From: Escherichia coli
GTDB lineage: Bacteria > Pseudomonadota > Gammaproteobacteria > Enterobacterales > Enterobacteriaceae
Reading direction: 5' to 3' (one strand)
Assembly (NCBI RefSeq): GCF_003991155.1
Contig: NZ_CP031293.1
Length of the DNA: 64,000 nucleotides
Shown here: piece by piece, positions 63,223-63,502 of the stretch
Numbering within the stretch: position 1 is the stretch's first letter
Layout of the letters: each line of letters starts with the position of its first letter
The notes under the pieces: generated by a model
Told to the model about the DNA's origin: nothing
The model's database searches: none
The model's input: the letters and a program-made list of their open reading frames with translations, nothing else
Program-made: the position numbers and the translations under genes

Positions 63223-63375
63223 TGTAGCCCGCCTCAACGCACTTATTTAGTGCATCCATCTGCTATCACCAGCTGGTTAAGTAAATTTTTTGTATCCACA
63301 TCATCACACAATCGTTACATAAAGATTGTTTTTTCATCAGGTTTTACGCTAAATAATCACTGTGTTGAGTGCACA

Positions 63376-63412
63376 ATTTTAGCGCACCAGTTTGGTGCCC
63401 CAGAATGGTGCA
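63376..63412. promoter_or_regulatory. Candidate NtrC binding sites upstream of glnH
   Basis: GCACCA-N4-TGGTGC and adjacent TGGTGCA-like half-sites; known architecture of glnHp2. Confidence 0.5.
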
Positions 63413-63485
63413 TCTTCAGGGTATTGCCCTATAAATCGTGCATCACGTTTTTGCCGCATCTCGAAAAATCAATGAGTTGCAAAAC

Positions 63486-63502
63486 TGGCACGATTTTTTC
63501 AT
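63486..63502 (+). promoter_or_regulatory. sigma54-type promoter (glnHp2-like)
   Basis: TGGCAC-gattt-TTTCA, 54-70 bp upstream of the glnH ATG. Confidence 0.55.

Follow-up and report, generated by a model that had tools for sequence, protein, structure and literature searches.

The window, by which we mean the whole 64 000-nucleotide stretch of Escherichia coli DNA analysed here, runs at its far end through dps and an intergenic spacer into the first part of glnH, the gene for the glutamine-binding protein (Table 1). The open reading frame ending at 63152 comprises 167 codons and corresponds to Dps, the frame preceding it was identified as RhtA by a profile search, and the glnH frame opens with an ATG at 63556, which leaves a dps-glnH spacer of 403 bp (63153-63555). 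The gene order opgE-ompX-rhtA-dps-glnH is the same in K-12, the entire window follows K-12 in collinear fashion from coordinate 902400 down to 847560, and the dps-glnH intergenic region is identical to that of K-12 MG1655 at 399 of 406 positions (98%), with seven SNPs and no indels. An earlier note on this DNA, made from the sequence, had described a backbone regulatory signal retained next to dps, and the collinearity, the identity with K-12 and the Dps and GlnH neighbours all agree with that description; at the dps-glnH end, the chromosomal backbone is undisturbed.

Table 1. Features of the dps-glnH region, in window coordinates; positions with a sign are relative to the start of the promoter named, or of glnHp2 where none is named.
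Feature	Position	Strand	Basis
dps CDS, upstream neighbour	62649-63152	+	NCBIfam equivalog NF006975 (Dps), 309 bits, full length; position that of K-12 b0812
Intrinsic terminator of dps, 13-bp stem and T run	63190-63218	+	Terminator scan
Distal NtrC-like dyad, CGCACTTATTTAGTGCA, centre -267 from glnHp2 +1	63238-63254		Three mismatches to TGCACC-N5-GGTGCA; function predicted
Degenerate CRP site of glnHp1, centred at -61.5	63290-63311		Exact match to ttgTATCCacatcaTCACAcaa of PMC1865078
glnHp1 -10-like element, TAAATAAT, predicted start ~63362-63364	63350-63364	+	CRP centre 63300.5 + 61.5
NtrC-like 17-mer at -135, TGCACAATTTTAGCGCA	63370-63386		Three mismatches; probably not a site
NtrC (NRI) site, centre 63391 (-122)	63383-63399		CGCACCAGTTTGGTGCC, two mismatches to TGCACC-N5-GGTGCA
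NtrC (NRI) site, centre 63404 (-109)	63396-63412		TGCCCCAGAATGGTGCA, one mismatch; 4-bp overlap with the -122 site
Conserved block TTGC...(10-11 nt)...GTGCA between enhancer and IHF site	63424-63442		Column conservation
IHF binding region; core AATCAATGAGTTG at 63467-63479, centre -40	63450-63483		Exact match to WATCAANNNNTTR
Sigma54 -24/-12 element of glnHp2	63486-63501	+	Identical to published ChIP-seq motif; GG at -26/-25, TC replacing GC at -14/-13
glnHp2 transcription start (+1)	63513	+	Forward and reverse primers of PMC1865078, each mapped independently
glnHp2 leader, 43 nt; stem GGGG-ATCG-TCCC at 63521-63532, Shine-Dalgarno AGGA at 63546-63549	63513-63555	+	Sequence
glnH CDS, first 148 codons, running off the window end	63556-64000	+	NF007029 (GlnH), 291.5 bits, profile positions 1-148 of 248

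Of 5426 complete E. coli genomes, 5421 contain the dps-glnH region, which adjoins annotated glnH in every match and is at least 99% identical in 4827 of these 5421. With the species so nearly uniform, the diversity was too low for footprinting within E. coli, and this approach was rejected. In E. coli GmF046 (NZ_CM183658.1, 2501-2943) the match to the promoter ends at about window position 63530, and the annotation gives glnH as a pseudogene without its N-terminus; in this isolate a deletion takes the end of the leader together with the 5' part of glnH, and the promoter is kept. Copies of the region labelled as plasmid-borne in the plasmid collection proved to be records of 0.7-4.9 Mb, and were set aside as mislabelled chromosomes or chromosome fragments. 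The same collection holds a 121-kb Klebsiella pneumoniae record (NZ_CP079601.1) that carries glnH at 85% identity. An Rfam scan of 62300-64000 gave no matches at the gathering score, weak sub-threshold matches being confined to the dps terminator, and a hidden RNA gene in this interval is not supported.

Read directly, the sigma54 element consists of TGGCAC (63486-63491), GATTT (63492-63496) and TTTCA (63497-63501). The earlier note had claimed this same promoter, with the correct start and an end, at 63502, that lies one base too far. The element agrees with TGGCAC-N5-TTGCW at 15 of 16 positions, with the GG at 63487-63488 and the -12 C at 63500 at the required 10-bp separation and a T replacing the G of the GC, and it is oriented towards glnH, on the plus strand and 70 bp 5' of the ATG. 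The two versions of the MG1655 sequence differ by a 777-bp offset, and this was used for the conversion of coordinates. The stretch cTGGCACgatttTTTCA (63485-63501) is letter for letter the glnH motif CTGGCACGATTTTTTCA identified by sigma54 ChIP-seq (Bonocora et al. 2015, Table 1, PMC4591121; centre 847290, PSSM 10.79), and after conversion the published centre falls exactly on 63493, the centre of the motif in the window. In the EcoCyc column of PMC4591121 the glnH motif carries the flag C, which we have taken as 'confirmed'. The T-for-G deviation in the -12 is shared by the experimentally bound glnHp2 of K-12. Zhao et al. 2010 (PMC2831329) placed aaacTGGCACGATTTTTTCATAtatg between -70 and -53 relative to the start of glnH, which is matched by 63486 at 70 bp ahead of the ATG, and reported 8.3-fold lower expression in an rpoN deletion. 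In genomic SELEX, RpoN holoenzyme and NtrC both peak in the glnH-dps spacer, NtrC at 87% (PMC8743547). The start site was derived from a fragment spanning -289 to +63 of glnHp2, for which both primers are given (PMC1865078); the coordinates of these primers yield a predicted +1 at 63513 for the present strain, and the glnH ATG then lies at +44. Published coordinates thus place glnHp2 here and not elsewhere, which is where the earlier note had expected it.

A degenerate DNA pattern derived from a GlnH peptide was used to recover 120 loci from a collection of species-representative genomes. Among these, 28 Enterobacteriaceae loci had dps upstream, giving an alignment of 29 sequences, and the 28 loci carried TGGCA[C/T]...TTTCA near the ATG together with NtrC-like dyads at orthologous positions. 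The distance from the sigma54 element to the ATG was 66-71 bp across the 29 genomes. Mean column conservation over the 29 sequences was 0.72 for the entire dps-glnH spacer; it reached 0.96 at the consensus positions of the sigma54 element (0.92 in its spacer), 0.91 in the half-sites of the -122/-109 NtrC sites (0.64 in their spacers) and 0.95 at the consensus positions of the IHF core (0.67 in its N4 spacer). Similar arrangements of sigma54 and NtrC elements were present in Serratia, Pantoea, Hafnia and Rahnella, and mostly absent from alpha- and beta-proteobacterial and Pseudomonas GlnH loci. The sigma54 element of Yersinia glnH stood at a variable distance from the ATG (-275, -133, -80). Consensus, TTGC[AT]-type sigma54 elements, situated at -57 to -93, accompanied the GlnH homologues of Acinetobacter and Variovorax and also the GlnH-like, apparently paralogous proteins of Tatumella and Rosenbergiella.

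Within the aligned Enterobacteriaceae the -12 reads TTTCA in 27 of 29 genomes, TTCCA in two and TTGCA in none. The weak, non-consensus -12 is therefore itself conserved, and from the alignment the weakness of the promoter appears to be selected. Such conservation of the T-for-G fits a deliberately weak sigma54 site, in a promoter that would need both the enhancer and the bend made by IHF. Claverie-Martin and Magasanik are said to have interpreted glnHp2 and its -12 as weak. The description of glnHp2 as a weak sigma54 promoter that is naturally assisted by IHF is also found in a preprint (bioRxiv 10.1101/086108).

Upstream of the promoter, GCACCA is read at 63384-63389, and TGGTGC at 63394-63399 and again at 63407-63412. 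These are the repeats that the earlier note had placed at 63376-63412; the repeats are present, although the first begins 8 nt downstream of the start it gave. They form dyads centred at -122 and -109, and an upstream activating sequence, understood as at least two dyads about 100-140 bp upstream of a sigma54 start, is thus present. The derived centres equal those that Claverie-Martin and Magasanik reportedly gave in 1991 for the NtrC sites of glnHp2. Among the 29 genomes the GGTGCA of the -109 site is nearly invariant, and in 25 of them this dyad stands 82 bp from the sigma54 element. NtrC ChIP-seq lists glnHPQ as 'direct binding' (PMC4066584).

The earlier note's starting points, 63366 for the whole region and 63376 for the repeats, would imply three NtrC sites in tandem, spaced by 13 bp and centred at -135, -122 and -109. 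The 17-mer at -135 does keep the 13-bp register with its three mismatches, but matches of this quality occur at about 0.9 per kb in unrelated upstream regions, and the columns unique to it (63370-63382) are conserved at just 0.40 against the intergenic mean of 0.72, the sequences of other genera being unrelated there. We consider a row of three sites unlikely; judged by its columns, the -135 17-mer is probably not a site and was rejected as one, so that the interval 63366-63502, which correctly holds the glnHp2 sites, also takes in a non-conserved segment. The enhancer is accordingly read as the overlapping pair at -122 and -109. Between this pair and the IHF site lies the conserved block listed in Table 1, in which TTGC and CGTGCA are conserved at 0.7-0.99 and the intervening sequence is variable. 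This block does not fit the 17-mer NtrC spacing, and it might bind NtrC with low affinity or be recognised by a different factor.

The third component of the promoter is the IHF core, whose exact consensus match lies between enhancer and promoter, the arrangement of an IHF-assisted sigma54 promoter. The earlier note had claimed the known glnHp2 architecture, and this is what the window contains, although the IHF site that belongs to it had been left out. An insert named 'IHF-glnHp2' in the supplement of PMC8899819 opens with TTTGCCGCATCTCGAAAAATCAATGA, and its first 26 nt are those of window positions 63450-63475; the glnH amplicon defined by the IHF ChIP-qPCR primers of PMC8407004 maps to 63405-63509. 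The core falls within both this amplicon and the published IHF-glnHp2 sequence. The generic IHF consensus is matched exactly in Escherichia only, and other genera carry AAACAA.

Two of the SNPs that distinguish this strain from K-12 lie within protein-binding sites (T instead of A at 63391, T instead of G at 63473), and it could be envisaged that they alter the function of glnHp2. Both, however, occupy consensus-free positions, the former in the NtrC spacer and the latter in the IHF N4, and no functional change is therefore expected. The same allele is found 100% identical in many natural isolates, the columns of 63391 and 63473 vary freely among genera, and the CAATGA of the window recurs in the IHF-glnHp2 sequence of PMC8899819. 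A functionally altered promoter thus seems very improbable, and the glnHp2 of this strain is best taken as an ordinary, explained regulatory signal that is already known.

None of the motifs, considered by itself, exceeds chance expectation in 64 kb. The sigma54 pattern with at most one mismatch was matched twice in the window against 3.49 expected, and the NtrC pattern with at most three mismatches 28 times against 32 expected. When the architecture was defined as a match to the sigma54 pattern accompanied by two or more NtrC-like dyads (at most two mismatches each) centred 60-160 bp upstream, the window contained one instance and 300 first-order Markov, composition-matched simulations contained none; the combination of motifs is beyond chance. 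The only other match to the sigma54 pattern with at most one mismatch, TGGTACAGCCTTTGCT (44854-44869, plus strand), falls inside moeA by collinearity and is consistent with chance (3.5 expected per window). The notion that the motifs co-occur by accident in AT-rich intergenic DNA and have no regulatory role, which could appeal to each single motif being no commoner in the window than in shuffles, can be given practically no credence against the combined architecture and the contrast between half-sites and spacers at fixed spacing in 29 genomes, and is already refuted by the published binding of sigma54, NtrC and IHF to the same DNA in K-12.

The region is almost certainly glnHp2, the sigma54-dependent, NtrC-activated and IHF-assisted promoter of the glutamine ABC-transporter operon glnHPQ, in its native place after dps. 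Its position in the dps-glnH spacer and its near-identical sequence make it the orthologue of the K-12 promoter, with which it shares the locus, the neighbours, the sigma54 17-mer, the NtrC half-sites, the IHF consensus positions and all spacings; the two SNPs considered above are the only ones of the seven to fall inside the feature. In K-12, where the consensus positions are identical, sigma54 polymerase, NtrC and IHF bind the spacer and glnH expression is rpoN-dependent (PMC4591121, PMC4066584, PMC8743547, PMC8407004, PMC2831329). These binding and expression data were obtained in K-12 and are carried to the present strain by sequence identity.

If the mechanism of the class is followed in this strain, nitrogen limitation would lead NtrB to phosphorylate NtrC, and dimers of NtrC-P on the overlapping -122 and -109 dyads would form an ATPase oligomer. 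A bend introduced by IHF at about -40 would allow the oligomer to contact the closed sigma54 complex on the weak -24/-12, and ATP hydrolysis would open the promoter for transcription from 63513 with the 43-nt leader. The sigma70 promoter glnHp1 (start ~63362, CRP site 63290-63311) would supply CRP-cAMP-dependent expression.

This organisation has close relatives. Like glnAp1/glnAp2, the locus has a CRP-responsive sigma70 p1 followed by a sigma54, NtrC-dependent p2, with NtrC sites about 110-140 bp upstream of p2 and on or beside p1, and the glnA and glnH promoter architectures have been described as very similar (PMC3870243). In contrast to glnHp2, glnAp2 has a consensus-like -12 and does without IHF, and its strong sites are 32 bp apart (-140/-108), whereas those of glnHp2 overlap at a 13-bp offset. 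The nifH promoter of K. pneumoniae, Pu of P. putida and pspA also have IHF between the enhancer and the sigma54 promoter, with the bend delivering the activator; their activators, however, are NifA, XylR and PspF, and they belong to other regulons.

The degenerate CRP site at -61.5 of the sigma70 promoter glnHp1 (PMC1865078) is conserved at 0.87 across genera, and the block ACGCTAAATA at the glnHp1 -10 region is conserved as well. A generic sigma70 scan of 63100-63620 gave no promoter-like site, and glnHp1 was therefore placed from the published CRP site alone. The absence of a good sigma70 match is consistent with the very weak binding of sigma70 polymerase at glnHp1 reported in PMC1865078. 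With glnHp1 so placed, its start falls shortly ahead of the interval given in the earlier note, and the NtrC sites fall at about +22 to +51 of this promoter, just downstream of its start.

The glnHp2 leader is conserved at 0.89. Its stem, GGGG-loop-CCCC and weakened by G-U in E. coli, was considered as a candidate regulatory RNA structure; it is retained in 23-24 of 24 unique sequences with covariation near nil, and the leader of the window, folded as a single sequence, did no better than shuffles (z = 0.57). The longer transcript from glnHp1 was folded to look for pairing of the U-run of the sigma54 element with the A-run before the Shine-Dalgarno sequence, and the result was not convincing (z = -1.7).

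Further upstream, just past the dps terminator, lies the distal NtrC-like dyad, at about -116 relative to glnHp1. The E. coli version is the most degenerate of the alignment, those of Citrobacter, Enterobacter, Superficieibacter and Kluyvera being near-consensus. An orthologous dyad with at most two mismatches is present in 27 of the 28 other Enterobacteriaceae, against a background of 0.10 per kb for dyads of this quality in 64 unrelated GlnH upstream regions, and no other such dyad was found outside the three zones. Conservation is 0.96 in its half-sites and 0.62 in its spacer, and 27 of 29 genomes keep the dyad 145 ± 1 bp from the -122 site. The sequence CGCACTTATTTAGTGCA was not found in the papers searched, and the dyad may already be recorded as a site in the 1991 footprinting study or in RegulonDB/EcoCyc. 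We tentatively suggest, on the strength of the alignment, that it is a third, so far undescribed NtrC site, which together with the -122/-109 pair would bracket glnHp1 and might allow looping by NtrC-P; this seems possible rather than probable. NtrC-P could thereby loop out and shut off the sigma70 promoter glnHp1, and the distal dyad could also contribute one more dimer to the oligomer that activates glnHp2.

The conserved weak -12 and this additional NtrC-like dyad upstream of glnHp1 are the two modest points that the cross-genus alignment adds. The promoter had been noted mainly as an internal control, and as such it served: the search by eye for a sigma54 -24/-12 element with upstream NtrC dyads found a textbook enhancer-dependent promoter that was already known. 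This gives a calibration point, and the successful recovery supports the use of the same visual criteria elsewhere in the scan.

The window also contains a second published sigma54 promoter, the potF motif TATGCACGTTTATTGCA (15622-15638, minus strand), 60-76 nt upstream of potF and listed as site OS08 in PMC4591121. A good NtrC-like palindrome, CGCACCATAATGGTGCG (14386-14402), lies in the potF-potG spacer near a published NtrC genomic SELEX peak. Relative to K-12, a 1277-bp insertion is present between ybiT and ybiU (52641-53917) and encodes, on the minus strand, a 326-aa IS110-family transposase (Pfam DEDD_Tnp_IS110 and Transposase_20). Another insertion of about 1 kb, between rimO and dgcI (32642-33636), encodes a toxin of the RelE family (128 aa, 32861-33247) together with an HTH/MqsA-like antitoxin (109 aa, 33237-33566) whose gene overlaps that of the toxin.
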